A DNA stretch of 64,000 nucleotides from an uncultured bacterium. GTDB taxonomy: Bacteria > Spirochaetota > B62-G9 > DRHN01. The translations under genes were made by a program, and so were the position numbers. Shown piece after piece: positions 9,373 to 63,875 of the stretch (its first letter is position 1; each line of letters opens with the position of its first letter). Location: positions 1,309 to 65,308 of the forward strand of contig CBFDDP010000003.1 of NCBI GenBank assembly GCA_965603595.1. The letters run 5' to 3'. A model generated the notes under the pieces. It saw only the letters and a list, made by a program, of their open reading frames with translations. It did not search any database and was not told the origin of the DNA.

Positions 9373-9381
9373 GAGCAATCG

Positions 9382-25142: not shown

Positions 25143-25775
25143 CTATTTCGGTTTCTTCTCAAATCCCCAGCCGGCACCCTTTCTTCCCGTTAGTTTCACC
25201 AAGTCAAGATCTTTTGGAACCTCATCACCAGGACCCGGGATCATCGACATATCCAGGCCTTTTGGTATTTCATCCCAGAGTATATCCACCGTCCATGCCG
25301 ATACCTTTGCGCACACAACGGTGCATCCTATACTGTGCGCCCCCATTTCCTCAAATGTATCAAAATCTTTCTTATTACTGAAATCAAAGTTTCTGCCGTA
25401 CAGTTTCTGATGTATTTCAGGACAGATTGCCGACCCCCATTCCTGAACAAATTTGTCATAGAGCTTCTGTCCAAGGAACGATGACTTCAAATACTTTTCA
25501 GACCTGAGCCATTGGTCATATGTTCTACCGAAAAAGTAGCTGAATGCCAGCATTGCACCCGACCATGCTCCGCAAGCAACCTTTGCCGTGCAGGCACCAC
25601 CTCCCTCAAGCGCTGAGCTCAACTTAAAGATGAGATCGTTTTTTATACCCAGGACTTCCGATACGGCATTCCACGTAGCTTGCGAACAAGCCTGCCGGAG
25701 CCCTTCCCCTTCGAACGCTATTTTATAGGCTTTTTCCATCGCTTGTTCTCTCGTTAAGCCATTGATTGTGTCCAT
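25143..25775 (-). CDS. C_GCAxxG_C_C family protein (paralog 2)
   Basis: MDTINGLTREQAMEKAYKIAF...CSQATWNAV...GGGACTAKVACGAWSG. ATG start with an AAGGGGG SD. Confidence 0.65.
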   Translation of the reverse strand: MDTINGLTREQAMEKAYKIAFEGEGLRQACSQATWNAVSEVLGIKNDLIFKLSSALEGGGACTAKVACGAWSGAMLAFSYFFGRTYDQWLRSEKYLKSSFLGQKLYDKFVQEWGSAICPEIHQKLYGRNFDFSNKKDFDTFEEMGAHSIGCTVVCAKVSAWTVDILWDEIPKGLDMSMIPGPGDEVPKDLDLVKLTGRKGAGWGFEKKPK

Positions 25776-25793
25776 ATAAGCCCCCTTAATCAA

Positions 25794-31977: not shown

Positions 31978-32688
31978 GTGGAATTAAAAGCAATAGATAT
32001 CGCACGATTAATTGATATAAGTGCAGTTCGAACACCACATGGCGAAGCTGAAATCGAGGAACTTGTGATGTGTGCAAAGGAATATCATTTTATAGCCGTT
32101 CATGTTCTTCCATCCTGGGTTTCGTTTCTGAGGGAAAGGATATCTGAGAAGGATGAAATACTAATTGGATCACCTGCGGGCTTTCCTTCCGGAGGACATC
32201 GGACGGATACGAAGGTCCATGAAGTAAAGCAGCTGATCGCTGATGGAGTTCAGGAAATTGATATGATGATGAATGTGGGGATGCTCCGGTCAAAAAACTA
32301 CAGGTATGTCGAGGATGATATTCATGCGGTCATTGAAGCTTCTGGTAAGATACCTGTGAAAGTTATTCTTGAGACCTGTTATTTATCAGGAGATGAGATT
32401 AAAAAAGCGTGTGAGCTGTGCATCAAGGCTGGTGCAGCATATGTGAAAACGTCCTCAGGGTGGACACAGGTGGGAGCCACACTGGAAAATATCCGTCTGA
32501 TTACTACGTTCGTGGGAGACAGAATAAAGGTCAAGGCAGCAGGAGGAGTAAGGGATCTCAAGACAATGATCGAGATGTACAAAATGGGGGTTTCACGGTT
32601 TGGTATAAATGTGCAAGCTTCGATAAAAATTATTGAAGCGTGCAAGAGTCTTCCCGGGGGTGTGGTGAGAGTAGGTACAATGATTTAA
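31978..32688 (+). CDS. deoC: Deoxyribose-phosphate aldolase (DeoC), short form without an N-terminal extension
   Basis: 236 aa reading GGHRTDTKVHEVKQ...AYVKTSSGW...VKAAGGVRD. GTG start 8 nt after GAGGAG. Confidence 0.8.
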   Translation: MELKAIDIARLIDISAVRTPHGEAEIEELVMCAKEYHFIAVHVLPSWVSFLRERISEKDEILIGSPAGFPSGGHRTDTKVHEVKQLIADGVQEIDMMMNVGMLRSKNYRYVEDDIHAVIEASGKIPVKVILETCYLSGDEIKKACELCIKAGAAYVKTSSGWTQVGATLENIRLITTFVGDRIKVKAAGGVRDLKTMIEMYKMGVSRFGINVQASIKIIEACKSLPGGVVRVGTMI

Positions 32689-32725: not shown

Positions 32726-33919
32726 ATGGAGAACTTTGAATTTTATAATCCGGTGAGGATCATTTTCGGTTCTGGAGAGGTCTCTAAAACGGGGGTTGAA
32801 GCGTCCAAGATCGGATTAAAAGCGCTGCTGGTGTCATACAAAGAGCACGATTTTCTTAAGGAACTCCTGTCAAAACTCGAGTCTATACTTCAAGATGCGG
32901 GCGTAAAAGTCGTACCGTTCTTTGAGGTCACGGCAAATCCCAGAATGTGCCAGATACACGATGGGGTAGGTCTTTGTAAAGACGAGAGTATCGACCTTAT
33001 CATTGGCGTTGGTGGGGGAAGTGCCATGGATGCTGCAAAAGCCATTGCAGCCGGTGTTTTTTATAAGGGTGACCTCTGGAATATGGTGGTGAGCCGGCAT
33101 GACAACATAACCGCGGTGCCTCCTGAGAAGGCCCTTCCACTTCTCATGATACCAACCCTGCCTGCCACTGGTAGTGAAATGAATTGCTGTGCCGTTGTAA
33201 CCAACGAGAAGACCACGGAAAAATCCTACATCTATGCCCCGTGTCTATTTCCAAAACTATCCATCGCCGATCCATCTTTAACATGTAGTTTACCTCCCTA
33301 CCAGACAGCATGTGGGGCAGCGGATACTATATCCCACGTTTTAGAGTTCTATCTTAACGGTCAGTATGATGCGCCTCTCCAGAATCGTATAGAGGAGGGT
33401 GTGATCCTAACTGTCATGGAGAATGTAAATAAGGCATTGGAAAATCCGAATGATGTTGCTGTCCGAGGACATTTGCAACTGGCCTCAATTGTTGCTTTAA
33501 ACGGGTGGTCGCAGCCTGGCGATGCATGGACCCCCATGCATCAGCTCGGCCATGTACTATCTGCCCGTTATGATCTTGCTCATGGCGTTACGCTCTCGAT
33601 TGTAATGCCTGCATGGATGAAGTGCCTCTACGAGAGAAGGGTTGAAAGCTATGTTCAATTTGCTAACCGTATATTCAGCATTGAAATCGATGGAAAATCG
33701 CAGGGAGAAGTGGCTTTAAAAGGGATTGAACGTTTTGAGAAGTTCCTGAAATCAATCAATGTACCGACACGTCTTTCTGATGTACATATCAAGGCTGATG
33801 TAATCGATGATTTAACAGCTGACGTTGTACGAATCAGCTTTGGAGCGGATGGATTTCTGAGCAGTCGTCCTCCTGTTGATAGAAACAGTGTGCGAAAGGT
33901 GTTCGAAGCAGCATTGTAG
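32726..33919 (+). CDS. Iron-containing alcohol dehydrogenase
   Basis: GVGGGSAMDAAKAIA with Fe-ADH His motifs. Confidence 0.85.
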   Translation: MENFEFYNPVRIIFGSGEVSKTGVEASKIGLKALLVSYKEHDFLKELLSKLESILQDAGVKVVPFFEVTANPRMCQIHDGVGLCKDESIDLIIGVGGGSAMDAAKAIAAGVFYKGDLWNMVVSRHDNITAVPPEKALPLLMIPTLPATGSEMNCCAVVTNEKTTEKSYIYAPCLFPKLSIADPSLTCSLPPYQTACGAADTISHVLEFYLNGQYDAPLQNRIEEGVILTVMENVNKALENPNDVAVRGHLQLASIVALNGWSQPGDAWTPMHQLGHVLSARYDLAHGVTLSIVMPAWMKCLYERRVESYVQFANRIFSIEIDGKSQGEVALKGIERFEKFLKSINVPTRLSDVHIKADVIDDLTADVVRISFGADGFLSSRPPVDRNSVRKVFEAAL

Positions 33920-33960: not shown

Positions 33961-35076
33961 ATAGGCAATTACATTATCGCATATGATCTCGGTACGGGCG
34001 GCAATAAGGCTTCACTGTATAACAGAGAGGGGGAGTGTATCAAGACTACCTTTGTTCCCTATGAGACGCTGTATCCCGTTGCGGGCTGGCATGAACAGAG
34101 ACCGACCGATTGGTGGGATGCCGTTGTCGAATCCACGCATACTCTTCTCTCATCACCGGACGTATCGCATGATGATGTTGAATGCCTTGCTCTCTCTGGG
34201 CAGAGTCTTGGGGTAGTTCCCATTGACAAACATGGGAATCTGCTTCGTGAGACGGTTCCTATCTGGTCTGATACGCGCACTGCAAAGCAGACGGATGAGT
34301 TCTTTTCTGAGATCGACCCCACTGAATGGTACATGACGACGGGCAATGATTCGAGGCTGATGGAGGCGAGTGGTCTCCCACCAACGTTGTTCCCAGATAT
34401 TGTACCCTCCACGTATATAATCGGTGAAATAGCAAAGGACGTATCAGAAGTCATAGGATTATCAAATAGAGTAAAGGTGGTTTGTGGTGGTGTTGACAAT
34501 TCCTGTATGGCTTTGGGTGCGGGGAACATAACAGAGGGCAGGCTCTACCTCTCCCTGGGCTCTTCAGCGTGGATCGCAGTCTCATCCCACGGACCAATTG
34601 TAGATGTTAAAATTAAACCCTTTGTCTTTACCCATGTTATTCCAGAGATGTTTACCTCTGCTACCGCAATTTTTTCTGCAGGTAATTCCTTGAAGTGGGT
34701 GAGGGATACACTCTGTAAGGATATAAAAGAGGTGGCTGAAAGAGAGAACAGGGATCCATATGAAATGATGCCTATAACTGCAGAGGAATCGCCGATTGGA
34801 GCACACAAGCTCATTTTTAATCCCAGCCTTGCAGGAGGATCGGCGGCTCACTTGAGTCCTCAGATTCAGGGGGCATTTCTCGGCATTGATCTTTCGCACA
34901 CTCAGGCCGATGTGATAAGCTGTTGCAGAAGTGGGACGGAGGCGATACGGCGGATGTTAAAGATGCAGATAAGCTTGCAGTACTTGCAGACAAGGGGATA
35001 TTTGGTCCGATTAAGAAGCTCCGAACGGAGGATATACTCTGCAATAATGCCGAGGCTCTGCGATTTGGCGCCGTAG
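33961..35076 (+). pseudogene. Decayed FGGY carbohydrate kinase
   Basis: In-frame FGGY N-terminus IGNYIIAYDLGTGG, but no ATG, GTG or TTG anywhere in the 5' ~125 codons; the initiator position reads ATA. An internal deletion of about 55 aa is apparent against the intact paralog at 62328. The C-terminus is lost after HTQADVI. Confidence 0.6.
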
Positions 35077-39060: not shown

Positions 39061-39205
39061 TATCTTGATCGAACCATACCCATGGGCCAGTTTCAGAGAG
39101 TAGGGGACTCAGGCGAGTCCCTTACTCATTGTTTTACATAGAGTGAAAACTGCAGAAAGATTTCAGCAATTTATTCATATACCGTACTACCAGGAGGAAT
39201 TTTTA

Positions 39206-39829
39206 ATGAAAGAAACAATCAACGGGTATACCAAAGAGGAAGCGATGGAGAAGGCTTTCAAGATTGGATTCGAGAGCGAGAAAAACCGGCTCTCCTGCTC
39301 CCAGTCAAGTTTTCATGCAATCACCACGGTACTTGGGTATCGAAATCCACAGCTCTTCAAGAGCATCGTCGCCCTACAGGGAGGGGGCGCCGACTCGGGT
39401 CTGAATTCCTGCGGTGCTTTCTGCGGCCCCCTTGTGGTTTTCGGCTACTTCTTTGGAAGGGACTACAAGCTGTGGGAACAGGGTGAGATGGACCTTACGG
39501 CATCGATGCTCGGCCAGAAGCTCTTGAAAAAGTTTCAGGAAACCTATGGGTCGGCAGTGTGTAAGGATATTCAGACCCAGTGTCTGGGTTTCCCCACACA
39601 ATTCCTGGAAGGAGATATATTCAACGAGGAAGCCTTTGATAAATTCGAAGCTCATGGGGGTCATGAATTGGTTGCACCTACGGTTGTGGGAAGAGCAGCT
39701 GCCTGGGCAATTGAAATACTCTGGGATAAGCTTCCAAAGGATCAGGATATAGACTTATCATCAATTCCTTCATTTGAAGAAGCCGAAAAGAGGCTTAAGG
39801 AAAAGATAGCGAATTTGAAAAAAGAATGA
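39206..39829 (+). CDS. C_GCAxxG_C_C family protein (paralog 3)
   Basis: MKETINGYTKEEAMEKAFKIGF...CSQSSFHAI...GGGADSGLNSCGAFCG. SD AGGAGG lies 8 nt upstream. Confidence 0.65.
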   Translation: MKETINGYTKEEAMEKAFKIGFESEKNRLSCSQSSFHAITTVLGYRNPQLFKSIVALQGGGADSGLNSCGAFCGPLVVFGYFFGRDYKLWEQGEMDLTASMLGQKLLKKFQETYGSAVCKDIQTQCLGFPTQFLEGDIFNEEAFDKFEAHGGHELVAPTVVGRAAAWAIEILWDKLPKDQDIDLSSIPSFEEAEKRLKEKIANLKKE

Positions 39830-50917: not shown

Positions 50918-52108
50918 ATGCAGGACAAAATGAGTTCAATGGAAAAATTCAATGAAACGGGAGATACGCTTGAAATATGGTGGGATTCATCTCCTCTGGT
51001 ATTTGATTCATGGAAGAAGGCTCGCATAAAGGCAAGGCCATTAAACGAAAGGGAGGCAGAGGAGGAGGTACTTGACAGGTATTATATATCTGATCGCCCA
51101 ATGGAGCAGCTTTTTCGGGGAGTTACCACGAATCCACCGTTATCAGGGGCTGTGATAAAGGATGACCCGGGGTTTTGGCGGGAGTGGGTTAGCGAGCAGA
51201 GGAGGAGAAATTCGAAAGCGAGTGTCAAAACGCTCTGGTGGATGATGTATAAGGAGATTGTGAAGCGAGGGGCAGAGAAATATCTTGGAGTATTCAGGCA
51301 ATCAGGATTCAAGTATGGATATTTGTCAGGTCAGGTAGATCCAAGGGAATATGAAAATGAAGAGACGATGAAGAGACAGGCTCTAGAACTTGCTGGCATG
51401 AACTCGAATATAATGATAAAGATACCAGGAACCGAACAGGGTGTGAGGGTATTGAGATATCTGACATCGAAGGGTATAGCAACAAACTGTACCCTTGCAT
51501 TTGTGTTACCGCAGTTTGTGGCAGTGGCCAAGGCCGTTAAAGAGGGGCTCGAAAAGGCAAAGAGCCATGGAGTGGACCTCAACCGCTGGAGAAGTGTGAT
51601 TACATCAATGACGGGGAGATATGAAGAGCTCGGTGATTTTGACAGGGAGGCTGAAAAGCTGGGGATGGAAATTACCGAGGCGGACAAGAGATGGGCAGGC
51701 ATCGCAATATTTAAAAAGGCGGTTAAGTATTTATCTGAAGGTGATTACCCGAGCAAAATGTTGATCTGTTCAATGAGACCCGGACCCGTGGTGGACGGAA
51801 AGAAGGAGCTCTGGCACTTTGAGAAGCTCGCGGGCGTGCATGCAGTGTTCACCTGCCCACCGAAATATATCAACCTCGTAGATGACGAGTACAGGGAGCT
51901 GGAGTATGATCCGGATGCATGGAAAGAGCCGGTTCCGGATGAGATTCTGGACAGGCTGAACAAGTTTCAGTACTTCAGGGAAGCGTATGATGCGGAGGGC
52001 ATGGAGCCCCCACAGTTCAACTCCCATCCTGCAACCATTGCAACGGCAAAATCATTCAGCAAGGCAACCGATGAGATGGAGAACTTTGTGAGGGAAGCTG
52101 TGCTGTGA
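50918..52108 (+). CDS. Transaldolase-family protein
   Basis: GVTTNPPL (TNP motif) and IMIKIPGTEQGVRVLRYLTSKGIATNCTLAF (K-containing block). Confidence 0.65.
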   Translation: MQDKMSSMEKFNETGDTLEIWWDSSPLVFDSWKKARIKARPLNEREAEEEVLDRYYISDRPMEQLFRGVTTNPPLSGAVIKDDPGFWREWVSEQRRRNSKASVKTLWWMMYKEIVKRGAEKYLGVFRQSGFKYGYLSGQVDPREYENEETMKRQALELAGMNSNIMIKIPGTEQGVRVLRYLTSKGIATNCTLAFVLPQFVAVAKAVKEGLEKAKSHGVDLNRWRSVITSMTGRYEELGDFDREAEKLGMEITEADKRWAGIAIFKKAVKYLSEGDYPSKMLICSMRPGPVVDGKKELWHFEKLAGVHAVFTCPPKYINLVDDEYRELEYDPDAWKEPVPDEILDRLNKFQYFREAYDAEGMEPPQFNSHPATIATAKSFSKATDEMENFVREAVL

Positions 52109-52911: not shown

Positions 52912-53071
52912 TTTATAAGAGGCCCCCTTTCAGTATATGTACATCATGCACAGAATATAGAAAAGTCTCAGTGCAAGGTATAGTGCAAATGGGAATGAAT
53001 TCCCTTGACTAAAAATGAACAATTTTGCATAATATGAAAAAATGTAATTCGAACCCATGAGTGGAGGGGCC

Positions 53072-54238
53072 ATGAGAAATTTTGAATTTCACAATCCAAC
53101 CAGGATCATTTTCGGTGAAAACAGGGTCAAGGAAATCGGTAAAGAGGCAAAGCAGTACGGCAAGAAATGCCTGATGGTCTACGGCAAGTCGAGCATCAAG
53201 AAGAACGACGTGTACGATACCGTCGTGAAATCGCTCAATGATGCGGGCATTACCTTTGTCGAGTATTCGGGTGTGAAGTCCAACCCGATACTGTCCCATG
53301 TACAGGGTGGCGTCGATCTTGCGAAAAAGGAAAAGGTCGATTTCATACTCGCTGTCGGTGGCGGGAGTGTGGTCGACGAGTCGAAGGCGATCGCTGCCGG
53401 GGCCATGATGGAGGGGAGTATCTGGGGCTTCCTGCTCGGCGACACCGAGGTAGGAGAGGCGCTTCCGTTACTGGATATTCTCACCATTCCAGCCACGGGC
53501 ACGGAAATGAATCCCACCTTTGTGGTAACCAATGATCAGACCACTGAAAAGGTCGGCCGCGGAAGCGATCCGCTCTTTCCAAAAGTGTCTGTACTCGATC
53601 CCACAGTGACTGTTACCATCCCGGCCGATTACACAGCATACTCCGCAGTTGATGCCATATCCCACCTCATCGAGGGCTACTTCACCGGTGAAGACAGCTG
53701 GACCCCCATTCAGGACGGTTATGTGGAAAACCTGGTCAAGACTATCATTGAGTGTACAGAGCGTATTCTTAAAGACCCCAGGGATTATCAGGGCCGTGCA
53801 ACCTTTATGTGGGCAGCGACCCTTGCATGGAACGGCCTGGGCCCTTCGGGCATCGGCGGCTGGGGCGTGCCCATGCACCTGATCGAGCACCCGCTGAGCG
53901 GTATTTACGATATTGCCCACGGTGCCGGCCTCTCCATCACCATACCGGCATGGCTGACATGGAAGGCTGAAAAGGACAGCTCGAAGATTGCCCAGTTCGG
54001 CCGCAACGTGTTTGGCATAGAGGAAAAGGATCAGGGCGCTGCGGCCAAAAAGGGCATAGAGGCTCTGAAAAGCTGGTTCGACAAGATCGGAAGCCCCGTC
54101 TCCTTCGCAAAGGCCGGCATCCCTGAATCTGACATTGACAGGATAACTGACATAGCGTGCAAACTTGCCGAGACCTGGGGGATGCAAAAGGAATACACGC
54201 GGGATGTCATCATTGAGCTCTACAGACTGTGTGTGTGA
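53072..54238 (+). CDS. Iron-containing alcohol dehydrogenase
   Basis: MRNFEFHNPTRIIFG...VGGGSVVDESKAIA. SD GAGTGGAGGGG lies before the ATG at 53072. Confidence 0.85.
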   Translation: MRNFEFHNPTRIIFGENRVKEIGKEAKQYGKKCLMVYGKSSIKKNDVYDTVVKSLNDAGITFVEYSGVKSNPILSHVQGGVDLAKKEKVDFILAVGGGSVVDESKAIAAGAMMEGSIWGFLLGDTEVGEALPLLDILTIPATGTEMNPTFVVTNDQTTEKVGRGSDPLFPKVSVLDPTVTVTIPADYTAYSAVDAISHLIEGYFTGEDSWTPIQDGYVENLVKTIIECTERILKDPRDYQGRATFMWAATLAWNGLGPSGIGGWGVPMHLIEHPLSGIYDIAHGAGLSITIPAWLTWKAEKDSSKIAQFGRNVFGIEEKDQGAAAKKGIEALKSWFDKIGSPVSFAKAGIPESDIDRITDIACKLAETWGMQKEYTRDVIIELYRLCV

Positions 54239-54345
54239 AGCCCCGGATACCTGCTCGAAGGATGGTTGACATTTTTAATGAATTCCTTAGGGTACGCCCG
54301 AGAAGTACATTGATGCACACGCTGTTCTGAAAGGAGTTGCATGTA

Positions 54346-57207
54346 ATGAGTGCACATAATCTGAAAATACTCCGTGTAAACATGCAGTCCCTCACAGCGG
54401 AGTATGAACCGCTTCCCGAGGAGTGGCTGCTCATCGGTGGCAGGGGCCTTGTGGCCCGTATCATGAACCGTGAAGTCCCCCCCGATGCAGACCCCTTTGG
54501 TGCACAGAACAGACTTATCTTTGCCTGTGGTCCCCTGGCGGGTACCAATGCCCCTCAGCTCGGAAGAATATCGGTGGGAGCAAAGAGCCCGCTGACACTG
54601 GGCATCAAGGAGGCGAATGCAGGAGGTCCGGCAGCACAGAAGCTCGACCGTCTCGGTATTCGGGCAATCATCGTTGAAGACATCCCTGAAAATGGAAAGC
54701 TCTACTGCCTGAAGGTCTCAAAGGGGGAGGCAGAACTCATAGCCGCTGATGAGTACAGGGAGATGAAGGTCTATGATCTGGTCCAACGGGTCTACGAGAA
54801 TGTGGACGGCAATCCCGCAATCATGGGTATCGGTGTGGCCGGGGAGAGGAAGTACAGGGGTGCATCCGTTTTTCTCACCGACATGTACGGCGACCCCTCC
54901 CGCAATGCAGGGCGGGGCGGACTCGGTGCTGTTATGGGCTCAAAGGGCCTCAAGGCTGTTCTCATCGACGATACAGGTTGCGCATTCCCGCCCCTGGCAG
55001 ATAAGGAGCTGTACAGGAACACGGTCCGCGACTGGGTCACTATGATCAAGAAGGATGTGGTGTGCGGGCTCTTTGCCACAGAAGGCACACCCTTCACCAT
55101 CGCCTCAAACAGCTATCAGGGTACCATGCCGGGAGACAATTACCGGACCGGGAGACCCCGGGACTTCGAAAAGGTTACAGGTGAGGTCACGCGGCGGAAG
55201 GTGTGGGAGCGGCATGGCAAGATGCATGCCTGTATGCCCGGCTGCGTTGTACAGTGCTCCATCATCTACTTTGATGAGCAGGGCCACAAGACCTCTGCCT
55301 ACGAGTATGAGGCGGTGAGTATGATCGGCACCAACCTGGGTATCGCCGACACCGACCGGGTGGCGCAGTTCAAACACATATGTGATGATCTGGGGGTCGA
55401 TTTTATAGAGATCGGTTCAGCCATCGGCGTTTCGGGTGAAGCGGGAAAGATGAAACCGGGAGACCCTGACACGGTCTTCGCACTGCTCGAGGAGATGGAG
55501 CGGGGGACAGAACTTGGACGCACTATAGGAAATGGAGTGGTGTCGGCCGCCAAAGCCTTCGGGGTGTCGCGGATCCCGGCTTTCAAGGGCCAGGCCCTGC
55601 CCGCACATGATCCCCGTGCAGTTAAGGCCATGGGTGTCACCTATGCAACCAGCCCCCAGGGTGCGGACCACACGGCCGGGCTAACCTACAGGCAGCCCCT
55701 TGAAAAGAAAGGGCAGGTGGTAAACTCTCTGCGATTTCAGCTCCGGGCTGCTGCCTGCGATACCTTCGGCTATTGCCTAAACTCGGTACCCGGAGGGCAG
55801 GCGTCGATTTACAGATTCGTGTCCGACCTCCTGAGAGCACGGTTCGGTGCGGACACTACGCCCGATGACATACTCGAGGTGGCAAAGCAGAACCTGCGCG
55901 ACGAGCTTAACTTCAACGAAAAGGCCGAGTTCAGCAGTGCTCACGATTCCTTTCCTGAATTTCTTAAAAACGAGCCTCTGCCGCCGACCGGGCATGTATT
56001 CGATGTCGAACAGTCGGAGATCGAAAAGATATGGGACCTCATGGAGGTGTACAGGGAGCCCGAGAAGATATGGGAGGTGCGTTTTCCCAAGGAGCCGCAA
56101 TTTCTCTTCGGTGTCGGGGTGTACAAAAAGATCGGCGCGCAGGCTGCGCGACGTGGCATGACAAAGGCGCAGATCATTGCAGATCCCGTTATGGAGAAAT
56201 TGGGAAAAACTGCTGAGATACGGGACATGCTCGAGGAAAGCGGTGTTGCCTCCGTCCTGTACACCCGGGTTGAGCCGGATCCGCCCGTGGATTCAATCGA
56301 GCGGGCAGCCAAATTCTACCAGGATAATGGATGCGACGGGCTCATCGCCATCGGCGGGGGAAGCTCCATTGACACGACAAAGGCCACTGCCGTCAGGGTG
56401 TCGCAAAGGGGACTTCTCAGGGAATTCGAGAATATGGTGGGCGGCAAGGCAAAGATCAAGCCGCCGCTTCCGCCGATCATAGCTGTTCCCACCACGTCGG
56501 GCACGGGTTCCGAGACAAACCAGTATGCAATCATCACCGACCCGGACCGGAACGTGAAGTTCACCATTATGAGTGATTACATGGTGCCGCGGCTTGCAGT
56601 GATCGACCCACTCATGTGCCGTACCATGCCTCCCTCAATCACCGCTGAGACTGGTATCGATGCACTCTCGCACTGTGTCGAGGGTTATGTGGGTATGAAC
56701 GAGGAGTACCACCCCTACTATGAGGCCCTCGCCCTCTACAGCGTGAAGCTCATAGGCAAAAGCCTGCGGCGGGCTTACAACGACGGTGACGACATTGAGG
56801 CTAGAAGGGACATGTGCATGGCCGCCGCGTTCGGCGGTATCGCCTTTACCAAGGGCCTTGCACTGGGACACGCTATTTCCCATGTCCTTGGCGCATTTTA
56901 CCATATCTCCCATGGAACCGGATGCGCCCTTGGCCTGCTCTGCCACGTGCGCTCGAACAGGGAGGTCTGCAGAGAGCAGTTCGAGGACCTTGCATGGGCT
57001 CTGGACCGCTCGAAGGATCTGGAGGATGCACTGCTCAGGCTCTACAGTGATCTGAAGATACCGGTTCGGATGAGGGAGGCTGGCATCAGGGAGAAAGATC
57101 TGGAACGGATCGGCTTCGAAGTATCCACGAACACGGTGAACCTGGCTGCAAATCCAAAAGCTCTCACAGAGCACAGGATACTGGAGCTTTTACGGGAATT
57201 TTATTAG
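54346..57207 (+). CDS. Fusion protein: aldehyde:ferredoxin oxidoreductase (tungsten AOR family) N-terminal part plus iron-containing alcohol dehydrogenase C-terminal part
   Basis: Residues 1 to ~580 match AOR: KILRVNM, ACGPLAGTNAP, GGLGAVMGSKGLKAV and a Cys cluster ACMPGCVVQC. Residues ~590-953 match Fe-ADH: GGGSSIDTTKATAV and HAISHVLG...HGTGCA. It is a single uninterrupted ORF. Confidence 0.75.
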   Translation: MSAHNLKILRVNMQSLTAEYEPLPEEWLLIGGRGLVARIMNREVPPDADPFGAQNRLIFACGPLAGTNAPQLGRISVGAKSPLTLGIKEANAGGPAAQKLDRLGIRAIIVEDIPENGKLYCLKVSKGEAELIAADEYREMKVYDLVQRVYENVDGNPAIMGIGVAGERKYRGASVFLTDMYGDPSRNAGRGGLGAVMGSKGLKAVLIDDTGCAFPPLADKELYRNTVRDWVTMIKKDVVCGLFATEGTPFTIASNSYQGTMPGDNYRTGRPRDFEKVTGEVTRRKVWERHGKMHACMPGCVVQCSIIYFDEQGHKTSAYEYEAVSMIGTNLGIADTDRVAQFKHICDDLGVDFIEIGSAIGVSGEAGKMKPGDPDTVFALLEEMERGTELGRTIGNGVVSAAKAFGVSRIPAFKGQALPAHDPRAVKAMGVTYATSPQGADHTAGLTYRQPLEKKGQVVNSLRFQLRAAACDTFGYCLNSVPGGQASIYRFVSDLLRARFGADTTPDDILEVAKQNLRDELNFNEKAEFSSAHDSFPEFLKNEPLPPTGHVFDVEQSEIEKIWDLMEVYREPEKIWEVRFPKEPQFLFGVGVYKKIGAQAARRGMTKAQIIADPVMEKLGKTAEIRDMLEESGVASVLYTRVEPDPPVDSIERAAKFYQDNGCDGLIAIGGGSSIDTTKATAVRVSQRGLLREFENMVGGKAKIKPPLPPIIAVPTTSGTGSETNQYAIITDPDRNVKFTIMSDYMVPRLAVIDPLMCRTMPPSITAETGIDALSHCVEGYVGMNEEYHPYYEALALYSVKLIGKSLRRAYNDGDDIEARRDMCMAAAFGGIAFTKGLALGHAISHVLGAFYHISHGTGCALGLLCHVRSNREVCREQFEDLAWALDRSKDLEDALLRLYSDLKIPVRMREAGIREKDLERIGFEVSTNTVNLAANPKALTEHRILELLREFY

Positions 57208-57262
57208 TAGAGCTGGACAATAGGTAGAATCCAATGTTTATGATTAGGAAAGGAAGGAAGAT

Positions 57263-59548
57263 ATGAAAGAGATCGATGTCATGCCCTGTCATGATGAGCG
57301 GGCGACTTTGAAACTGCCGGAGATCGCACTGTATCGATACAATCCCGATCTGAAGGACGAGCTGGACAAGGGCATTATCACCAAAGACGAAGCCCTGAGG
57401 CTGTACAAGGCCATGATCATTCAGCGTGCCTTCGAGTACACCATCAGGGATCTTGACAGCAAGCGTTTCGTACCCTATGAGGGTTTCGAGTTTCGGGGTT
57501 CCACACACCTCAGTGTGGGGCAGGAGGCATCGCAGAGCGGTGCCGTCAGTGCGCTAACCAAGGACGACTACATCGCCGTGCATCACAGGGCACACGGGCA
57601 CTGTCTCGCCAAGGGGCTCTTCGCCTATTACGCGATGAGTGAAAAAGAGTTGAAGCAGGTGCTCAGCACGGCTGAGGAGAACGAGTTCGACGCTGGCGGA
57701 TACAAGGACCTCCTCGAAGCGGTTGTCGATTATCACCTCTACCGCATGATTGCAGAAGCACTGGGCATGCAGGCAGGCTACTGCCACGGCCGCGGCGGTG
57801 CAATGCATATAGCCGATTTTTCGGTGGGTCACCTGGGCGCCAATGCAATTGTCGGCGGTGGTTCGCCTATCGGCACCGGTGCAGCACTGGCCGCCTCTCT
57901 GCTCGAGGAGCAGAGGGTAGTGATCAACGCCTTCGGCGATGGCGCCATGAACAACGGAGTGGTCCACGAGTCCATGAACTTTGCCACCATGGCGCAGTTT
58001 GAGAAGGGTTTACCCGTAATCTTTTACGTTGAAAACAACCAGTACGGCATGACCGGACAGCAGAAGGGTGAGGTGACGAATATCGAGTATTTGTCCCAGC
58101 GCGGTGCTGCCTACAACGACGTGGCCATGCATGCTGAGACCATCTGCGGTATGAATATACTCACCGTTCGTGACGCTGTCAGGCGCGCCAAGGAGCTCTG
58201 CCTCAATGGAGAGGGACCGGTGCTCATCGAAGCGAACACCTACCGGTACTGGGGCCACAATTTCAAGGACAAGGGAACATCCTATCGGACGAACAAGGAA
58301 ACCGAGGCCTGGCAGACCCACGACCCGGTGGATTGGTACAAGAGAGAGCTCGAGGCAAATGACATCATCACCGTGGCTGAAGCTGACCAGATGTTCAACG
58401 AGATGCGCGAGAAGCTCAAGGAACTCACCATGATGGCTACGAAGAGCAGGTTTCCCGAGATCAAGGACATGGGGTGGGGCCTGTATGCCGATACAACTTC
58501 AGACAATGTCGGAGACGAGTACAGGACAAAAACCATACTCAAACCCTTCCGGAGAATCAAGAGGGACAGCGAGGGGATGCTGCTCGGCAGACATGCGGTA
58601 CTCGAGGCGCTCAACGAGGAGATGATGCGGGACTACAGAGTGGTAGTCTGGGGCGAGGATGTTGCCGCCTACGGCGGGGCCTATAACGCAACATTGGGAC
58701 TGTACGACACCTTCGGTCCAAAGCGCATCTTCAATGCCCCCATATCCGAAGCGGCTATCATTGGAACAGGGGTTGGCGCGGCCATGGCGGGGTTGCGGCC
58801 GGTTGTGGAGCTCATGTACATCGACTTCATCCTCATGGCCATGGATCAGGTGGGAAATCAGGCGGCCAAGACCAGGTACATGTTCGGTGGGCAGTCGGAT
58901 ATACCTTTCACCATCCGTACCACCATCGGTGGCGGCAAGGGATACGCGGGGCAGCATGCACAGAGCCTCGAGTCCATTGTCACGCAATTCCCCGGACTCA
59001 AGGTTGCCATTCCCTCCAATCCCTATGACCTGAAGGGTCTTCTGAAAACAGCGATCAGAGACGACAATCCGGTGTGCGTCATCGAGCATCAATGGGTGTA
59101 CCTGGAGAAAAATGTTGTTCCCGAAGAGGAATACACCATTCCCTTCGGACAGGCGAATGTGGTCAGGGAAGGCAAGGATATCACGGTGGTTGCCTACTCG
59201 CAGATGGTGAACATCACCAAGGAAGCTGCAGAGCTGCTCACACAGGAGGGTATCGATGTGGAGATTGTTGACCCGAGGACACTCGTACCGCTCGATGTGG
59301 AAACCATCACGAAGTCGGTGAAGAAGACTGGCCGGGGGGTGATCGTTACACAGGCGCCCTACACGGGAGGGTTCGCGAGCCATATCTCCCATGAGATTAC
59401 CAGGAACTGCTTCAGCGATATGAAATGCCCGGTGAGAATCGTGTCAGGGTACGATGTACCGCCGCCCATGTCCCATCCGCTCGAGGTGGAGAACATGCCC
59501 AACGCCGAGCGCATTGCTCGGGGTATCAAAGAGGCACTTGCGGAATAA
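57263..59548 (+). CDS. Fused E1 alpha-beta thiamine-diphosphate 2-oxoacid/acetoin-dehydrogenase-like component
   Basis: 761 aa. The alpha part reads GRGGAMH...FGDGAMNNG...FYVENNQYGM. The beta part reads RDYRVVVWGEDV...GGGKGYAGQHAQS. There is no stop between them. Confidence 0.8.
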   Translation: MKEIDVMPCHDERATLKLPEIALYRYNPDLKDELDKGIITKDEALRLYKAMIIQRAFEYTIRDLDSKRFVPYEGFEFRGSTHLSVGQEASQSGAVSALTKDDYIAVHHRAHGHCLAKGLFAYYAMSEKELKQVLSTAEENEFDAGGYKDLLEAVVDYHLYRMIAEALGMQAGYCHGRGGAMHIADFSVGHLGANAIVGGGSPIGTGAALAASLLEEQRVVINAFGDGAMNNGVVHESMNFATMAQFEKGLPVIFYVENNQYGMTGQQKGEVTNIEYLSQRGAAYNDVAMHAETICGMNILTVRDAVRRAKELCLNGEGPVLIEANTYRYWGHNFKDKGTSYRTNKETEAWQTHDPVDWYKRELEANDIITVAEADQMFNEMREKLKELTMMATKSRFPEIKDMGWGLYADTTSDNVGDEYRTKTILKPFRRIKRDSEGMLLGRHAVLEALNEEMMRDYRVVVWGEDVAAYGGAYNATLGLYDTFGPKRIFNAPISEAAIIGTGVGAAMAGLRPVVELMYIDFILMAMDQVGNQAAKTRYMFGGQSDIPFTIRTTIGGGKGYAGQHAQSLESIVTQFPGLKVAIPSNPYDLKGLLKTAIRDDNPVCVIEHQWVYLEKNVVPEEEYTIPFGQANVVREGKDITVVAYSQMVNITKEAAELLTQEGIDVEIVDPRTLVPLDVETITKSVKKTGRGVIVTQAPYTGGFASHISHEITRNCFSDMKCPVRIVSGYDVPPPMSHPLEVENMPNAERIARGIKEALAE

Positions 59549-59647
59549 CCCAATGCAGAAGCTGTGCATACCGGGAAAAGTGTCCACAGCTTCAAGTGTA
59601 CTTCTGTCTCTATTTCCTGATCTTTGGAAGAGGAGGAGCAGACTGCA

Positions 59648-60496
59648 ATGTCACTCAGCACCTTTCAAAAAATGCTTGCTGATGCAAAGGAGAGAAAATA
59701 CGCAATAGGCTCTTTCAATGCATGGGATGTGTATTCAGCGAAGAACATCACCCTCACCGCAGAGAAGATGCGTTCACCGGTTATCATTTCTCTCTGGCAG
59801 CCAGAGCTTGATTTTGCAGGCGAGAGGCAGCTCTACGAGCTCTGTGTTTCCTTTGCCGCTGCTGTCTCAGTGCCTGTGGCGATTTTCATAGATCATGCGA
59901 AGGATGTACAGGCTGTTGAAAGGGCTATCAGACTGGGAGCGACAAGTGTCATGATCGATGGTTCACATCTCCCGCTTGAGGAAAACATTGCACTCACGGC
60001 CCGGGCTGCAGAGTTAGCCCATAGTGCCGGTGTTTCAATTGAGGGTGAGATTGGTGTTCTGGGGGAAGAGGACGGCTCTGAGCCGGATGAAGCATTCTAC
60101 ACTGATGAGCATGAAGCGGAAGTTTTTGTGAGAGATACGGGGATAGATGCCTTGGCGGTAGCTATCGGAAATGCGCATGGTTACTATAAAAGAGCCCCCA
60201 GATTGGACCTTGATCGTCTGGCAGCAATAGGCTCGAGAGTTGATGTGCCCCTGGTGCTGCATGGCGGCTCCGGCATACCGCCGAATGATCTGCAGGCGGC
60301 TATTGACCGGGGGATCACCAAAGTCAATATCGGTGCTGAACCCCGCACTGCCTTCATGGACGGTTTACGGGAATCACTGGCGGAGGCAGACGAGAGTGAG
60401 AAGTTTCCTCACAGGATTTTTCCCCGTGCCCTTGAGCGCCATGCCCAGCTGATAGAGGAAAAAATGGTTTTGCTGGGTTCGGAAGGCAGGGGATGA
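59648..60496 (+). CDS. Class II ketose-bisphosphate aldolase (FbaA/GatY/KbaY family)
   Basis: MSLSTFQKMLADAKERKYAIGSFNAWD...FIDHAKD...GEIGVLGEEDG...VLHGGSG. Confidence 0.8.
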   Translation: MSLSTFQKMLADAKERKYAIGSFNAWDVYSAKNITLTAEKMRSPVIISLWQPELDFAGERQLYELCVSFAAAVSVPVAIFIDHAKDVQAVERAIRLGATSVMIDGSHLPLEENIALTARAAELAHSAGVSIEGEIGVLGEEDGSEPDEAFYTDEHEAEVFVRDTGIDALAVAIGNAHGYYKRAPRLDLDRLAAIGSRVDVPLVLHGGSGIPPNDLQAAIDRGITKVNIGAEPRTAFMDGLRESLAEADESEKFPHRIFPRALERHAQLIEEKMVLLGSEGRG

Positions 60497-60585
60497 TGAT
60501 CTAATGAAATCGAGAAGTGCTTCAATGGGTGCATCGAGGTGCTTTTCGTTTACTGAATTGATGGTCTCAATGAAAGGATTGATGG

Positions 60586-61290
60586 ATGCAACAGAGCAGG
60601 GGATCTATAGATTTTGAACCTCCCTATGAGGAATTCACAGCTCCAGCCATACGAAAAGTCATCGCACAGAGGCTGCTCGAGAGCAAACTGACTATCCCGC
60701 ACTTCTATCTCTTCGATGAAATTGATATGGAGGAAGCGGCGCTGCTGCGCGGTGAGCTGAACAGCATGAAGATCAGCTTCAACGATATGATCGTGAAAGC
60801 CGTGACAGTGGCACTGGAAATGCACCCCGAGTGCAACGTCTCCTATGCTGACGGTAAGATCCGCCGGTATCTGGAGATCAACATCAACATCGCTGTGGCC
60901 ATAGAGGGTGGCCTGCTCGTACCGGTTCTGAGAAACTGCAGGGGAAAGAGCCTCTCTGACATCAGCCGGGAAACAAAGGAGATTGTTCAGAAGGCACGAA
61001 ACAGGAAGCTCCGCCCCCATGAGGGACTGGGGGGAACCTTCACCATCTCGAATCTCGGTGTATTCGGTCTGGACGGGTCCTTCTCCATCATCAATCCTCC
61101 CCAGGCTATGATATGTACGACAGGAGCTATCAAGGAAATGCCCGTGGTGAGAGAGGGCAGCCTCGCTGTGGGGACAAGAATGAAGGTGACGCTTTCATGT
61201 GACCACCGGGCGGTTGACGGTGCTGTGGGCGCCCTGTTCCTTGCGGATCTCAGGAAGATACTCGAAAATCCACGGGAATACCTCGTTTAG
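60586..61290 (+). CDS. Stand-alone 2-oxoacid dehydrogenase acyltransferase (E2) catalytic domain with no lipoyl domain
   Basis: 234 aa ending ...SCDHRAVDGAVGALFL. Only 90 bp of non-coding sequence lie upstream, with no lipoyl or subunit-binding domain. Confidence 0.75.
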   Translation: MQQSRGSIDFEPPYEEFTAPAIRKVIAQRLLESKLTIPHFYLFDEIDMEEAALLRGELNSMKISFNDMIVKAVTVALEMHPECNVSYADGKIRRYLEININIAVAIEGGLLVPVLRNCRGKSLSDISRETKEIVQKARNRKLRPHEGLGGTFTISNLGVFGLDGSFSIINPPQAMICTTGAIKEMPVVREGSLAVGTRMKVTLSCDHRAVDGAVGALFLADLRKILENPREYLV

Positions 61291-61317
61291 ACGTGAATCG
61301 GAATCGAGGCTGAACAG

Positions 61318-62280
61318 ATGAATGAACTTGAAATGGAAAAACTGCTCCCCAAGATTGCACATCTCTACTATCTGGAGGACATGAATCAGGACAAGATCGC
61401 GGAAAAGTTCAACATCAACAGGGTCAGGGTCTCCAGGTACCTGAAAAAGGCACGCGAGATGAATATCGTTGAGATCAAGGTGAACTACTCCAAGGAGAGC
61501 TATCAGGAGCTCGAGCGGTGCATCGAGAAACGCTACGGCCTGAAGGAGTGCATCGTTATTCCCACCCACGACAACGTCCAGGGGATATTTCAGGAACTTG
61601 CGACGAGCCTTACGGGCGTGCTGAATCGTATTCTCAGGGACGGCGACAGCATCGGCGTGAACTGGGGTCTTACGCTCAAGGAGGTTATAGCCCTCATGGA
61701 CTCTCCGAAGCAGATCGATGTCAAGGTTGTACCCATGTGCGGGGGCCTGGGCAGGATCGAGCGGGGAATTCACACAAACTCAATAGCCAAATCCCTGGCC
61801 GATGTTTTCGGCGGCATCAGTTATGTGATCAATGCTCCTGCAATCCTCGACAGTAAAAAAACCAAGGAGGTGCTGCTGGAGGACAGTAACACGAAAGAGA
61901 TCTTTGAGCTGCTGAAGGGTCTGAGATGTGCCGTCTTCAGTTTCAGTGATCTGGGACCCGAGTCATCCTATGTCAAGTACGGGCTTTTCAGCAATGAAGA
62001 GATCGAGTATCTCAGGAGCAGGGGGATTGTAGGTGACGTGAACCTCGACTTTCTCGACAGAGAGGGCGCACATGTGCCCAACAAAATATACGACAGGGTC
62101 ATCGCCCTGCCGATTTCCGAGATAGTCAAGATACACAATGTGGTAGGCATCGCCTATGGCCTGAGAAAGGTGGAAATAGCAAGGGCCGTACTGCGTGGAA
62201 ATATTTTCGATATACTCGTTATAGACCTGGAGCTCGCGGAAGCAATGATTTCAGGTGTTGGTTCTGAGGGGGACAGCTGA
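61318..62280 (+). CDS. SorC-family sugar-binding transcriptional regulator
   Basis: N-terminal HTH region LYYLEDMNQDKIAEKFNINRVRVSRYLKKARE, and a C-terminal sugar-binding (CggR/DeoR-Bsu-like) domain. Confidence 0.8.
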   Translation: MNELEMEKLLPKIAHLYYLEDMNQDKIAEKFNINRVRVSRYLKKAREMNIVEIKVNYSKESYQELERCIEKRYGLKECIVIPTHDNVQGIFQELATSLTGVLNRILRDGDSIGVNWGLTLKEVIALMDSPKQIDVKVVPMCGGLGRIERGIHTNSIAKSLADVFGGISYVINAPAILDSKKTKEVLLEDSNTKEIFELLKGLRCAVFSFSDLGPESSYVKYGLFSNEEIEYLRSRGIVGDVNLDFLDREGAHVPNKIYDRVIALPISEIVKIHNVVGIAYGLRKVEIARAVLRGNIFDILVIDLELAEAMISGVGSEGDS

Positions 62281-62327
62281 GCAATATGCCATCCTTCAGC
62301 GTGATGAAAGGGAGGAAGAAATTGCAC

Positions 62328-63875
62328 ATGTCCGATTATCTCGTTGGTATCGATGTGGGAACTACCGGTGCAAAGGCGCTCGTTGTGGATCTCAAGGGGA
62401 ACCTTCTCGGCAGCGGTTACCGGGAATACCCCTGTTTATACCCGAAGCCGAACTGGGTGGAGCAGGATGCAGAGCTCGTCATACAGAAGACCTTCGAGGC
62501 CTGCCGCGAAGCCCTTGCCAACTCAGGTATCGATCCTAAGAAGGTCATCTCAGTCGGTTTCTCCACACAGAGAGCCACATTCTGTCTTCTAGATGGCGAC
62601 ATGTCGGTTATAGGCGGAAACTTTTACGGCTGGCAGGACAACCGGGCCCTCTCGGAGATGGAGTACATTGAGTCAAAGATACCTGCCCGCGAGCTGTATC
62701 AGATCCTCGGCATGCCCATTACACCAACATTCTCATTTTCCAAGGTAATCTGGATCATGCGTAACGACCCGCAGCGGTATGAGAAGGCGCGGTATATCTC
62801 ACTCATGCCAGATTATGTGCTGTACCGTTTCGGTGCAGATGAGTTCTGCTGCGAGGTCACCAATGCATGCTGTTCGAGCCTCATCGATGTGCATGAGCTC
62901 CGCTGGTCTGAAAAAATCATCGAGACCTATGGCATCGACCGGGAAAAGTTGCCGCCTCTCGTGAAACCCGGAACCCTGGTGGGCAAGATCACCGAAGAGG
63001 TTTCGGAGCGTACGGGACTCGCAGAGGGTACGCCCATCAGTACGGGAACGGGCGATCAGCAGTGCGCAGCGATCGGTGCGGGTGTCGTCAAACCAGGGTT
63101 TGCCGAACTCACACTCGGCACCTCGGGAGTACTCGTTGTGGCCACAGAGAAGCCGGTGCTTCCCGAAAGCGGCATCATGATGGTGCCGGCTTCAGGTGCG
63201 TGGGGTCTGTACGATGTGGAGGGGATACAGCTGGGTGCGGCAAGCAGCTATCGATGGCTCAGAGACGAGCTCGGAGGTCTTGAGCGGGCCTGGGGAGATG
63301 ACATCGGGGAGAATCCCTACGCCCTTATGGAGCAGCATGTGCGAAAGAGCCCTGTCGGCGCCAATGGCATCGTCTTTCTCCCCTTTCTGAACGGCTCTGG
63401 ATGTCCCTACTGGGATGTGCATGCAAAGGGGGTCTTCGCCGGGCTTACCTTTGCCCACACGAAGAGTGATCTTGTCCGGGCGGTTATGGAGGGCATTACC
63501 CTGGAGGCCAAGGATATTTACCGGGCCATGCAGGATATCGGCGTCGAAATCAAAAGGCTGGCAACAACAGGAGGAGCTGCAAACTCACCTGCATGGCAGC
63601 AGGTCATGGCAGATATGTTCGATGTTGAGATCTACAAGCTGAAGGTGTCGGAGGCCACAACCCTCGGTGCTGCGATACTTGGTGGTGTGGGTGCCGGTGT
63701 GTTCAGGGATGCAGCAGAGGGTGTTTCGCATATCGTGCACTACGAGGAGGCTATCCTACCCATCAGAGAGCATGTCGAGAAATATGATGGACTCTACGAC
63801 GTGTATCGAAATATCCACGGAGCTCTCACGGAGCACGGGAGCTACAAAATGCTTTCGAATATGCAGGGAGCGTGA
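62328..63875 (+). CDS. FGGY-family carbohydrate kinase (xylulokinase-like), intact
   Basis: MSDYLVGIDVGTTGAK...GTGDQQCAAIGAG...TTGGAANSPAWQQVMADMF. SD AAAGGGAGG lies upstream. Confidence 0.85.
   Translation: MSDYLVGIDVGTTGAKALVVDLKGNLLGSGYREYPCLYPKPNWVEQDAELVIQKTFEACREALANSGIDPKKVISVGFSTQRATFCLLDGDMSVIGGNFYGWQDNRALSEMEYIESKIPARELYQILGMPITPTFSFSKVIWIMRNDPQRYEKARYISLMPDYVLYRFGADEFCCEVTNACCSSLIDVHELRWSEKIIETYGIDREKLPPLVKPGTLVGKITEEVSERTGLAEGTPISTGTGDQQCAAIGAGVVKPGFAELTLGTSGVLVVATEKPVLPESGIMMVPASGAWGLYDVEGIQLGAASSYRWLRDELGGLERAWGDDIGENPYALMEQHVRKSPVGANGIVFLPFLNGSGCPYWDVHAKGVFAGLTFAHTKSDLVRAVMEGITLEAKDIYRAMQDIGVEIKRLATTGGAANSPAWQQVMADMFDVEIYKLKVSEATTLGAAILGGVGAGVFRDAAEGVSHIVHYEEAILPIREHVEKYDGLYDVYRNIHGALTEHGSYKMLSNMQGA

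Follow-up and report, generated by a model that had tools for sequence, protein, structure and literature searches.

A fusion of an aldehyde:ferredoxin oxidoreductase with an iron-containing alcohol dehydrogenase in uncultured anaerobes as a probable ferredoxin- and NAD-dependent analog of AdhE

A stretch of 64,000 nucleotides from an uncultured bacterium of the Spirochaetota (contig CBFDDP010000003.1, positions 1,309 to 65,308), hereafter the window, encodes a 953-aa polypeptide in which an aldehyde:ferredoxin oxidoreductase (AOR) module is followed by an iron-containing alcohol dehydrogenase (Fe-ADH) module. Judged from its sequence, the protein is probably a ferredoxin- and NAD-dependent analog of the bifunctional enzyme AdhE that interconverts alcohol, aldehyde and carboxylic acid via a shared aldehyde. 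Its N-terminal 575 residues constitute a complete AOR of the metallopterin/[4Fe-4S] type and its C-terminal 378 residues a complete Fe-ADH of the NAD type. The fusion recurs in many uncultured anaerobes.

The open reading frame (ORF) called at the locus (54337..57207, plus strand) begins with TTG and specifies 956 aa. The ATG codon at 54346, which has an AAGGAG Shine-Dalgarno sequence 9 nt on its 5′ side and agrees with the N-termini of close homologs, gives the 953-aa product considered here. Pfam identified four full domains within this one ORF in the order AFOR_N, AFOR_C, Fe-ADH and ADH_Fe_C, each with E ≤ 1e-40 (Table 1). A first-pass annotation, made from the DNA letters without database searches, had proposed a single AOR and Fe-ADH polypeptide from short motifs and had placed the boundary between the enzymes near position 56080. 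These points were upheld. The motif KILRVN occupies residues 7–12, GGLGAVMGSKGLKAV residues 191–205, the Cys cluster HACMPGCVVQC residues 294–304, GGGS residues 670–673 and the His-rich metal site HAISHVLGAFYHISH residues 842–856, with the further motifs DTFGYC at 472–477 and DALSH at 772–776, and the boundary falls inside residues ~551–590 (nt 55996–56115). The GC content across this junction is uninterrupted (0.54–0.59).

The AOR module was compared with the enzyme from Pyrococcus furiosus (PfAOR; structure 1AOR), which provides the reference numbering for AOR residues. Residues 9–548 of the fusion aligned to PfAOR residues 9–563 in phmmer searches (E 2e-58; ~29% identity), and Foldseek yielded TM scores of 0.84–0.86 to solved AORs, including 0.86 to 1aor_A. 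Equivalent positions were assigned in a MAFFT alignment of the fusion with 18 library sequences (fused, short unfused and reverse-order proteins), two AORs from genomic loci and PfAOR, and conservation was counted in two alignments of fusion proteins with 20 and 84 members. The PfAOR residues R76, N93, R182, T243, E313 and H448 correspond to R74, N91, R186, T248, E322 and H442 of the fusion, and D338, G341, D343 and D489 to D347, G350, D352 and D472. The Cys residues C288, C291, C295 and C494 of the Fe-S cluster are matched by C296, C300, C304 and C477. All of these residues of the fusion are invariant in 20/20 fusion proteins and most in 84/84, and those expected to bind the pterin and the Fe-S cluster are without exception present. 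The first three Cys form a Cx3Cx3C motif, equivalent to CxxCxxxC with one inserted residue, and this spacing is common to the whole short-AOR clade, unfused members included. Residues H294, C296, M297, C300 and C304 are invariant in 84/84 aligned fusion proteins; His294 is not conserved among unfused members of the clade. A loss of PfAOR Cys288, with which pairwise HMMER had aligned Met293, and a possible role of His294 as a ligand were considered and rejected as the family-wide alignment keeps three Cys.

Unfused relatives were sought in an exhaustive HMMER search over 1.84 billion representatives. The nearest of these (40–51% identity) stop at query residues ~561–567, and the short-AOR clade is characterized by a length of ~565 aa (557–580 aa in unfused members). 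The match to the AFOR_C profile is partial (positions 3–354 of 385). As the unfused relatives end where they do, the partial match reflects the short C-terminus of the clade and not a truncation, and the AOR module is full length for the short-AOR clade.

The fused ADH aligns end to end with the NAD-dependent methanol dehydrogenase (Mdh), DhaT and FucO (E 1e-63 to 1e-50), so that both modules are full length against their reference families. Its identity to characterized group III Fe-ADHs is 30–33%, and Foldseek gave TM scores of 0.90–0.92 to Mdh, DhaT, FucO and ZmADH2. The GGGS motif and residues D772, H776, H842, H846 and H856 are invariant in 20/20 fusion proteins, with D772, H776, H842 and H856 as the predicted ligands of an Asp/His/His/His metal site. 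Residue D613 occupies the position that sets the preference of FucO-type enzymes for NAD rather than NADP, and is replaced by Gly in 4/20 members. The invariance of the active-site residues of both halves indicates that selection maintains both catalytic sites.

The modules meet in a conserved segment. Unfused short AORs end within the junction and the N-terminal strand of the ADH starts at its end. Residues F552, D553, W563, W576 and R579 of the junction are invariant in 84 aligned fusion members and neither the 20- nor the 84-member alignment has a gap there. An AlphaFold2 model built from the 84-sequence alignment had a mean pLDDT (predicted local distance difference test) of 89.3 and a predicted TM score (pTM) of 0.84 over all 953 residues. 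The junction was modeled with pLDDT values of 78–95 as helices at 556–560 and 562–568 followed by the first ADH strand at 586–588, with no disordered linker. As a pTM of 0.84 is high for a two-module chain, the orientation of the modules appears to be confidently fixed, and the model predicts a single rigid body in which no flexible linker separates AOR from ADH. In Foldseek comparisons with the PDB, no chain spanned both modules (best query-normalized TM 0.55) and the match to AdhE was restricted to its ADH domain.

Relatives of the fusion were searched among 5.8 billion proteins that were clustered at 90% identity. At least 120 clusters, from a family that is larger still, possess the same four domains in 942–979 aa and are 58–100% identical to the query. 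The clusters are drawn from JGI, ENA, NCBI and Logan assemblies, and the few taxon labels among them are Spirochaetes/Spirochaetota, Chloroflexota metagenome-assembled genomes (MAGs) and subsurface metagenomes. The proteins are annotated by one half only, as "aldehyde:ferredoxin oxidoreductase" in JGI and as "iron-containing alcohol dehydrogenase" in NCBI. Other AOR and Fe-ADH fusions show 25–37% identity in the AOR core: the domain order of P0143 (977 aa) and P0145 (949 aa) is that of the window fusion, and P0208, P0240 and P0255 (1004–1029 aa) have the reversed order with Fe-ADH at the N-terminus and a canonical full-length long AOR at the C-terminus. In a neighbor-joining tree of AOR cores, which carries no bootstrap values so that the count of events is approximate, fusions branch at five distinct positions. 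Two of these are in the short clade, where the window family has an unfused AOR of 568 aa as its sister and P0143 branches apart from it. P0145 and P0164 cluster with an AOR of Desulfuromusa that is not fused, and the fusions of reversed order are found among canonical AORs. The tree suggests that the AOR/Fe-ADH fusion arose independently about five times and in both domain orders.

A scan of genome contigs with the family alignment recovered separate, adjacent ADH and AOR genes in Desulfuromusa, two Bacillota/Clostridiales MAGs and one Oligoflexia MAG. There were no close relatives of the fusion among the matches listed, in which generic Fe-ADHs were matched via PTT[SA]GTGSE. The existence of AOR and Fe-ADH as separate neighbors in other lineages is what might be expected if the fusion were an artifact in which a frameshift, the loss of a stop codon or chimeric assembly had run two adjacent genes together. 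However, these separate-gene loci (L008, L049, L045 and L013) run ADH then AOR, opposite to the order in the window fusion, and GC content is continuous across the junction. Moreover, four data sources contribute independent assemblies to the at least 120 clusters that share the 942–979 aa architecture, and this recurrence, combined with a conserved and gapless junction, excludes frameshift or misassembly for practical purposes. Repeated fusion together with operonic pairing argues, by Rosetta-stone reasoning, that the AOR and ADH activities are functionally coupled in a shared pathway. Other WOR types (tungsten-containing oxidoreductases) are encoded near the fusion in some genomes: in L005 (1135–8538), an AOR of 586 aa with heterodisulfide-reductase-like FlpD/CCG/Fer4 genes behind it, and in L089 (1–2260), an AOR of 674 aa with a gene for a polyferredoxin in front of it.

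AOR interconverts aldehyde and acid at a bis-pterin tungsten site, from which one [4Fe-4S] cluster hands single electrons to ferredoxin, and Fe-ADH transfers a hydride from or to NAD(P)H as it interconverts aldehyde and alcohol. Given how unfavorable acid reduction by AOR is, its occurrence in vivo has been a matter of long debate. The acid/aldehyde couple has an E0′ of −520 to −560 mV, and in acetogens and Thermoanaerobacter acids are reduced to alcohols by an AOR-ADH pathway whose enzymes are separate (PMC10816221). Acetate reduction by the AFOR of Clostridium autoethanogenum was measurable only when ADH removed acetaldehyde and carbon monoxide dehydrogenase (CODH) kept ferredoxin reduced (Lemaire et al., PMC12727526). 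In Pelobacter carbinolicus, acetaldehyde from acetoin dehydrogenase is split between ADH and acetaldehyde:ferredoxin oxidoreductase (PMC3543383).

In the proposed mechanism, the ADH site of the fusion would use NAD(H) to interconvert alcohol and aldehyde, and ferredoxin would serve the AOR site in the interconversion of aldehyde and carboxylic acid. Both sites would share one small aldehyde whose free concentration is held low, and the unfavorable acid/aldehyde step would be coupled to the favorable aldehyde/alcohol step in either direction, a coupling that a covalent, rigid fusion would hard-wire. Acetaldehyde or another C2–C3 compound of this kind is the most plausible candidate for the aldehyde, which probably also enters from outside. 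Its likely source is the adjacent acetoin-dehydrogenase-like E1 alpha-beta protein, a thiamine pyrophosphate (TPP) enzyme that would release aldehyde on C–C cleavage, and nearby aldolases are another possible source. Redox state would then route the aldehyde either to alcohol as an NADH sink or to acid with the production of reduced ferredoxin. The analysis directly shows the architecture, the intact active-site residues, the repeated occurrence of the fusion and its synteny; the metal, ferredoxin as the partner, the substrate, channeling from one site to the other and the direction in which flux runs are inferred.

The surroundings of the gene bear on this supply of aldehyde. A greedy ORF call picked 57 likely genes in the window, all of which were scanned with Pfam. 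The fusion sits in a co-directional cluster (53057–63875) that encodes Fe-ADH, the fusion, E1 alpha-beta, an aldolase, an E2 protein, a SorC regulator and an FGGY kinase (Table 1). A promoter-like site is located at 53005–53033 and no intergenic terminator-like sites were found on the plus strand, but the scan counts are not above chance. The fusion is followed by E1 alpha-beta in 6/6 loci with 70–100% identity (the window, L001, L088, L007, L089 and L090), and the pair is often trailed by a lipoyl-less E2, SorC and either PTA or a PTA-ACK fusion. Acetoin-dehydrogenase-type E1 enzymes release aldehyde on substrate cleavage, and the synteny suggests that in the 70–100% clade the fusion disposes of the aldehyde made by E1 alpha-beta. 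In L090, a 70% relative, DeoC is directly upstream of the fusion. The first-pass annotation had regarded DeoC and bacterial microcompartment (BMC) reactions as sources of aldehyde at the locus. In the window, although not in L090, DeoC is 22 kb upstream in another operon, and the Pfam scan of the 57 picked ORFs gave no BMC shell protein (PF00936/PF03319).

Table 1. Position of the fusion gene, its domains and motifs, and the neighboring genes in the window.
Feature	Position	Strand	Remarks
Stand-alone Fe-ADH, YqhD/butanol-DH-like	53057..54238	+	First gene of putative operon; same gene in L001, L088, L089
Whole fusion gene	54346..57207	+	953 aa + stop; AOR module then Fe-ADH module
AFOR_N domain, residues 7–209	54364..54972	+	Pfam E 1.1e-56; holds R74, N91, R186, GGLGAVMGSKGLKAV block
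AFOR_C domains 2 + 3, residues 227–552	55024..56001	+	Pfam E 8.5e-53; holds T248, E322, H421, H442
[4Fe-4S] ligand motif H294-A-C296-M-P-G-C300-V-V-Q-C304 (Cx3Cx3C)	55225..55257	+	Short-AOR clade signature
Pterin/Mg-binding motif D347-D-L-G350-V-D352	55384..55401	+	Equivalent to PfAOR D338xxGxD343
D472-T-F-G-Y-C477	55759..55776	+	Second pterin Asp and fourth [4Fe-4S] Cys; equivalent to PfAOR D489...C494
Structured junction, residues 551–590, VFDVEQSEIEKIWDLMEVYREPEKIWEVRFPKEPQFLFGV	55996..56115	+	Invariant residues, model confidence, ends of unfused AORs
Fe-ADH N-terminal NAD-binding domain, residues 585–755	56098..56610	+	Pfam E 1.2e-47; D613, GGGS 670–673
Fe-ADH C-terminal metal-binding domain, residues 766–952	56641..57201	+	Pfam E 1.5e-40; D772, H776, H842, H846, H856
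Fused TPP-dependent E1 alpha-beta, 761 aa	57263..59548	+	Pfam E1_dh + Transket_pyr + Transketolase_C
Class II ketose-bisphosphate aldolase	59624..60496	+	TIGR00167 above cut-off
E2 acyltransferase, catalytic domain only	60586..61290	+	DHRAVDG motif intact; also in L090
SorC/DeoR-type sugar-binding regulator	61318..62280	+	Conserved in L001, L007, L090
FGGY sugar kinase, xylulokinase-like	62286..63875	+	Below equivalog cut-off

The E2 protein has no lipoyl or E3-binding domain, and there is no E3 gene within the 64-kb window. A recent duplication of the fused ADH was ruled out as the origin of the Fe-ADH encoded upstream of the fusion, as the two are only 25% identical. Compared with an aco-like E1 encoded elsewhere in the window, E1 alpha-beta is 43% identical in the beta half and 27% in the alpha half, which bears an insertion of ~50 aa. 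The PTA-ACK fusions are single polypeptides of 690–718 aa encoded a few genes downstream of the AOR-ADH fusion (18807–20879 in L001 and 16631–18787 in L007), and in both loci a gene for a small ACT-domain protein follows. A pyruvate formate-lyase (PFL)-like glycyl radical enzyme is encoded ~8.5 kb downstream of the fusion in L001, a 90% relative, a distance that exceeds the end of the window.

That both modules are apparently functional and would act on a common aldehyde, as the first-pass annotation proposed, accords with their full length and intact residues, but its further view of the protein as a self-contained aldehyde dismutase is not supported in that form. In such an enzyme, two aldehydes would yield one acid and one alcohol with electrons from AOR feeding the ADH site. 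Two aldehyde-consuming sites on one chain and candidate aldehyde-generating enzymes in the operon would be in keeping with this scheme, as would the disproportionation of 2,3-butanediol or acetoin to ethanol and acetate by Pelobacter (PMC3543383). However, AOR gives single electrons via one [4Fe-4S] cluster whereas Fe-ADH needs the hydride of NAD(P)H, and the Pfam scan of all 953 residues revealed neither a flavin domain nor a further Fe-S or other converter domain. With no part of the chain able to turn the single electrons of an Fe-S cluster into a hydride, this alternative is very improbable: dismutation would proceed only through the ferredoxin and NAD pools of the cell with the aid of external ferredoxin:NAD oxidoreductases, and thereby merges into the "redox valve" that is part of the AdhE-like explanation. 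It is also unlikely that the fusion operates solely as a one-way carboxylic acid reductase that produces alcohol as a fermentative electron sink with no outside aldehyde. Thermodynamics would favor the attachment of ADH to an AOR that reduces acids (PMC10816221, PMC12727526), the fusion also is present in lineages without aldehyde-producing neighbors, and PTA-ACK in relatives implies that acetate is made nearby. Against this, both enzyme families are reversible, the conserved pairing with E1 alpha-beta and the adjacency of DeoC in L090 suggest a direct supply of aldehyde, and most characterized AORs are thought to oxidize aldehydes in vivo (PMC12727526).

There is only a slight likelihood that one module is non-catalytic, with a regulatory or scaffolding role such as that of an ErcA-like ADH, or that the AOR acts on a non-aldehyde substrate as do some clades of WORs. 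One of the top NCBIfam matches, although below the cut-off, is to the ADH-like regulator ErcA, but over 58–100% identity there is no variation in the catalytic residues or in those for metal, NAD, pterin and Fe-S. The hallmark residues of aldehyde-oxidizing WORs are Thr243, Glu313, Tyr427 and His448 in the 2026 WOR classification (PMC13328260), and one Class V WOR showed no aldehyde oxidation activity (PMC13328260). In the fusion T248, E322 and H442, equivalent to T243, E313 and H448, are kept and invariant, whereas Tyr427 is replaced by His421. This position takes His, Tyr or Trp in other AORs, and canonical AOR-type sequences with His are included among them.

The invariant His421 is nevertheless one of several observations that weigh against the AdhE-like explanation. 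The AOR equivalogs were not reached, with scores of 88 bits versus a cut-off of 868 for PRK09849 and 15.5 versus 1300 for GAPOR, and none of the Fe-ADH equivalogs (FucO, GbsB, ErcA, 4-hydroxybutyrate DH, EutG, DhaT-like) scored above the NCBIfam cut-off; the best values were 263 bits versus 550 for GbsB and 235 versus 537 for FucO. As no equivalog cut-off is reached in either half, the substrate is not readable from family membership. The window contains no Moco/Wco riboswitch, ferredoxin gene or tungstate-transport gene. Finally, members at 59–66% identity have unrelated neighbors, and since these more distant members share no neighbors the link with E1 alpha-beta is clade-specific.

Two extensions of the AdhE-like explanation, considered jointly, are conceivable but doubtful. 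The fusion may enclose a closed aldehyde tunnel, possibly within an AdhE-like assembly, that would interconvert free acid and alcohol in one ATP-independent four-electron step at the ferredoxin potential that prevails physiologically. In addition, in the Spirochaetota-like clade the fusion might form the aldehyde arm of a lipoate-independent TPP pathway that cleaves an alpha-hydroxyketone or ketose. The parts of such a previously undescribed pathway would be the fused E1 alpha-beta, the lipoyl-less E2 and PTA-ACK.

AdhE, which is bifunctional and forms spirosomes, is the best functional analogy for the fusion as both proteins carry a C-terminal Fe-ADH on one chain. AdhE converts an acid-level substrate to alcohol via aldehyde in two steps with the aldehyde sequestered, and a shared intermediate would be the counterpart in the fusion. 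However, the N-terminus of AdhE is an NAD/CoA-dependent aldehyde dehydrogenase (ALDH), whereas that of the fusion is a metallopterin/Fe-S AOR predicted to use free acid and ferredoxin without a CoA thioester. Accordingly, Pfam detected no Aldedh domain in the fusion, and PRK13805 matched via the ADH part only (194 bits versus 951). The AOR-ADH pathway of acetogens, Thermoanaerobacter and Pyrococcus has the chemistry and cofactors proposed for the fusion, but its enzymes are separate and coupled only via a free aldehyde pool. AorABC of Aromatoleum aromaticum and the bifurcating WOR of Eubacterium limosum likewise tie a tungsten AOR core to NAD chemistry; these systems reach NAD via Fe-S/FAD subunits, whereas the NAD of the fusion would serve a second, independent aldehyde site. 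With the free-standing group III Fe-ADHs (FucO lactaldehyde reductase, DhaT, Bacillus methanolicus Mdh, Zymomonas mobilis ADH2), the fused ADH shares the two-domain fold, GGGS, the Asp/His3 metal site and the NAD-type Asp after beta-2, but its N-terminal strand continues directly from the C-terminus of AOR.

The 2026 classification divides 4,064 WorL sequences into 92 clades, with classes by subunit composition (Putumbaka et al., June 2026; PMC13328260). Class I enzymes comprise a single WorL, as in PfAOR (1AOR) and the AFOR of C. autoethanogenum (9G7J), with which the fusion shares the AFOR_N and AFOR_C fold (TM 0.84–0.86), four Cys for one [4Fe-4S] cluster, the pterin Asp, Arg and Asn, and the catalytic Thr, Glu and His. 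The fusion likewise has no adjacent genes for WorS (polyferredoxin), WorN (FAD) or WorABC, its neighbors being Fe-ADH and E1 alpha-beta. It differs from PfAOR and AFOR in a C-terminus of the AOR that is ~40 residues shorter, the Cx3Cx3C motif, the Tyr427 to His exchange, the absence of the PfAOR dimer-iron ligands and the covalent Fe-ADH. By the rules of the classification the fusion would be Class I with an unrecognized extra catalytic module. The classification does not mention an AOR-ADH fusion and its supplements hold no Fe-ADH identifiers (PMC13328260). As its classes are based on subunit composition and this architecture is not mentioned, another category would be needed.

Beyond the fusion cluster, operons for the uptake and breakdown of sugars and polyols are densely packed in the window, along with many regulators of the GntR, RpiR and SorC types. 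Four iron-type ADH modules are present, three free-standing (18305–19474, 32726–33919 and 53057–54238) and one fused (56098–57201). DeoC (31978–32688; TIGR00126 above cut-off) is part of a GntR/DeoC/Fe-ADH operon 22 kb upstream of the fusion, and a DeoC/LacD-family gene is located at 1266–2138. Downstream of the DeoC/Fe-ADH pair, an ORF of 247 aa (34333–35076) looks like a truncated sugar kinase, perhaps the remnant of a pseudogene, as it matches only the final part of FGGY_N and a portion of FGGY_C. The product of 50918–52108 (396 aa), whose match to transaldolase/FSA is weak and incomplete (97 bits, positions 16–237 of 285 in the profile) and whose long termini are unmatched, may represent a diverged aldolase of this sugar island. 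A canonical set of acetoin-dehydrogenase (aco)-like genes encodes E1 beta (8383–9372), lipoyl-E2 (9382–10614) and E1 alpha (10702–11679), and is flanked by genes for a thiolase (3232–4467, minus strand), a 3-hydroxyacyl-CoA dehydrogenase (4502–5788, minus strand) and a short-chain dehydrogenase/reductase (SDR). The region 3232–11679 resembles the aco cluster of P. carbinolicus, and both carry acyl-CoA genes. Best matches of the SDRs in the window include butanediol/acetoin reductases, below cut-offs. Three paralogs of the C_GCAxxG_C_C "putative redox-active protein" are dispersed amid the sugar and polyol operons (6720–7289; 25143–25793, minus strand; 39143–39829). No Rfam family reached its gathering score in the 64 kb, so that no tRNA, riboswitch or small RNA was identified.

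The fusion architecture is already in public databases with automatic domain annotation, but apparently is uncharacterized and undiscussed: no description of a natural AOR-ADH fusion was found in the full-text literature searched, with most subscription journals outside its reach. No catalysts other than tungsten enzymes of the AOR type are known to reduce carboxylic acids that have not been activated. A covalent AOR-ADH fusion that appears to have evolved repeatedly would be direct evolutionary evidence that coupling of the two activities matters physiologically. The fusion would also provide a ready-made single-gene catalyst for the conversion of acid to alcohol or alcohol to acid, which makes it attractive for biotechnology. 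Moreover, it points to an uncharacterized clade of short AORs and to an unusual partner system of E1 alpha-beta and lipoyl-less E2 in uncultured anaerobes.

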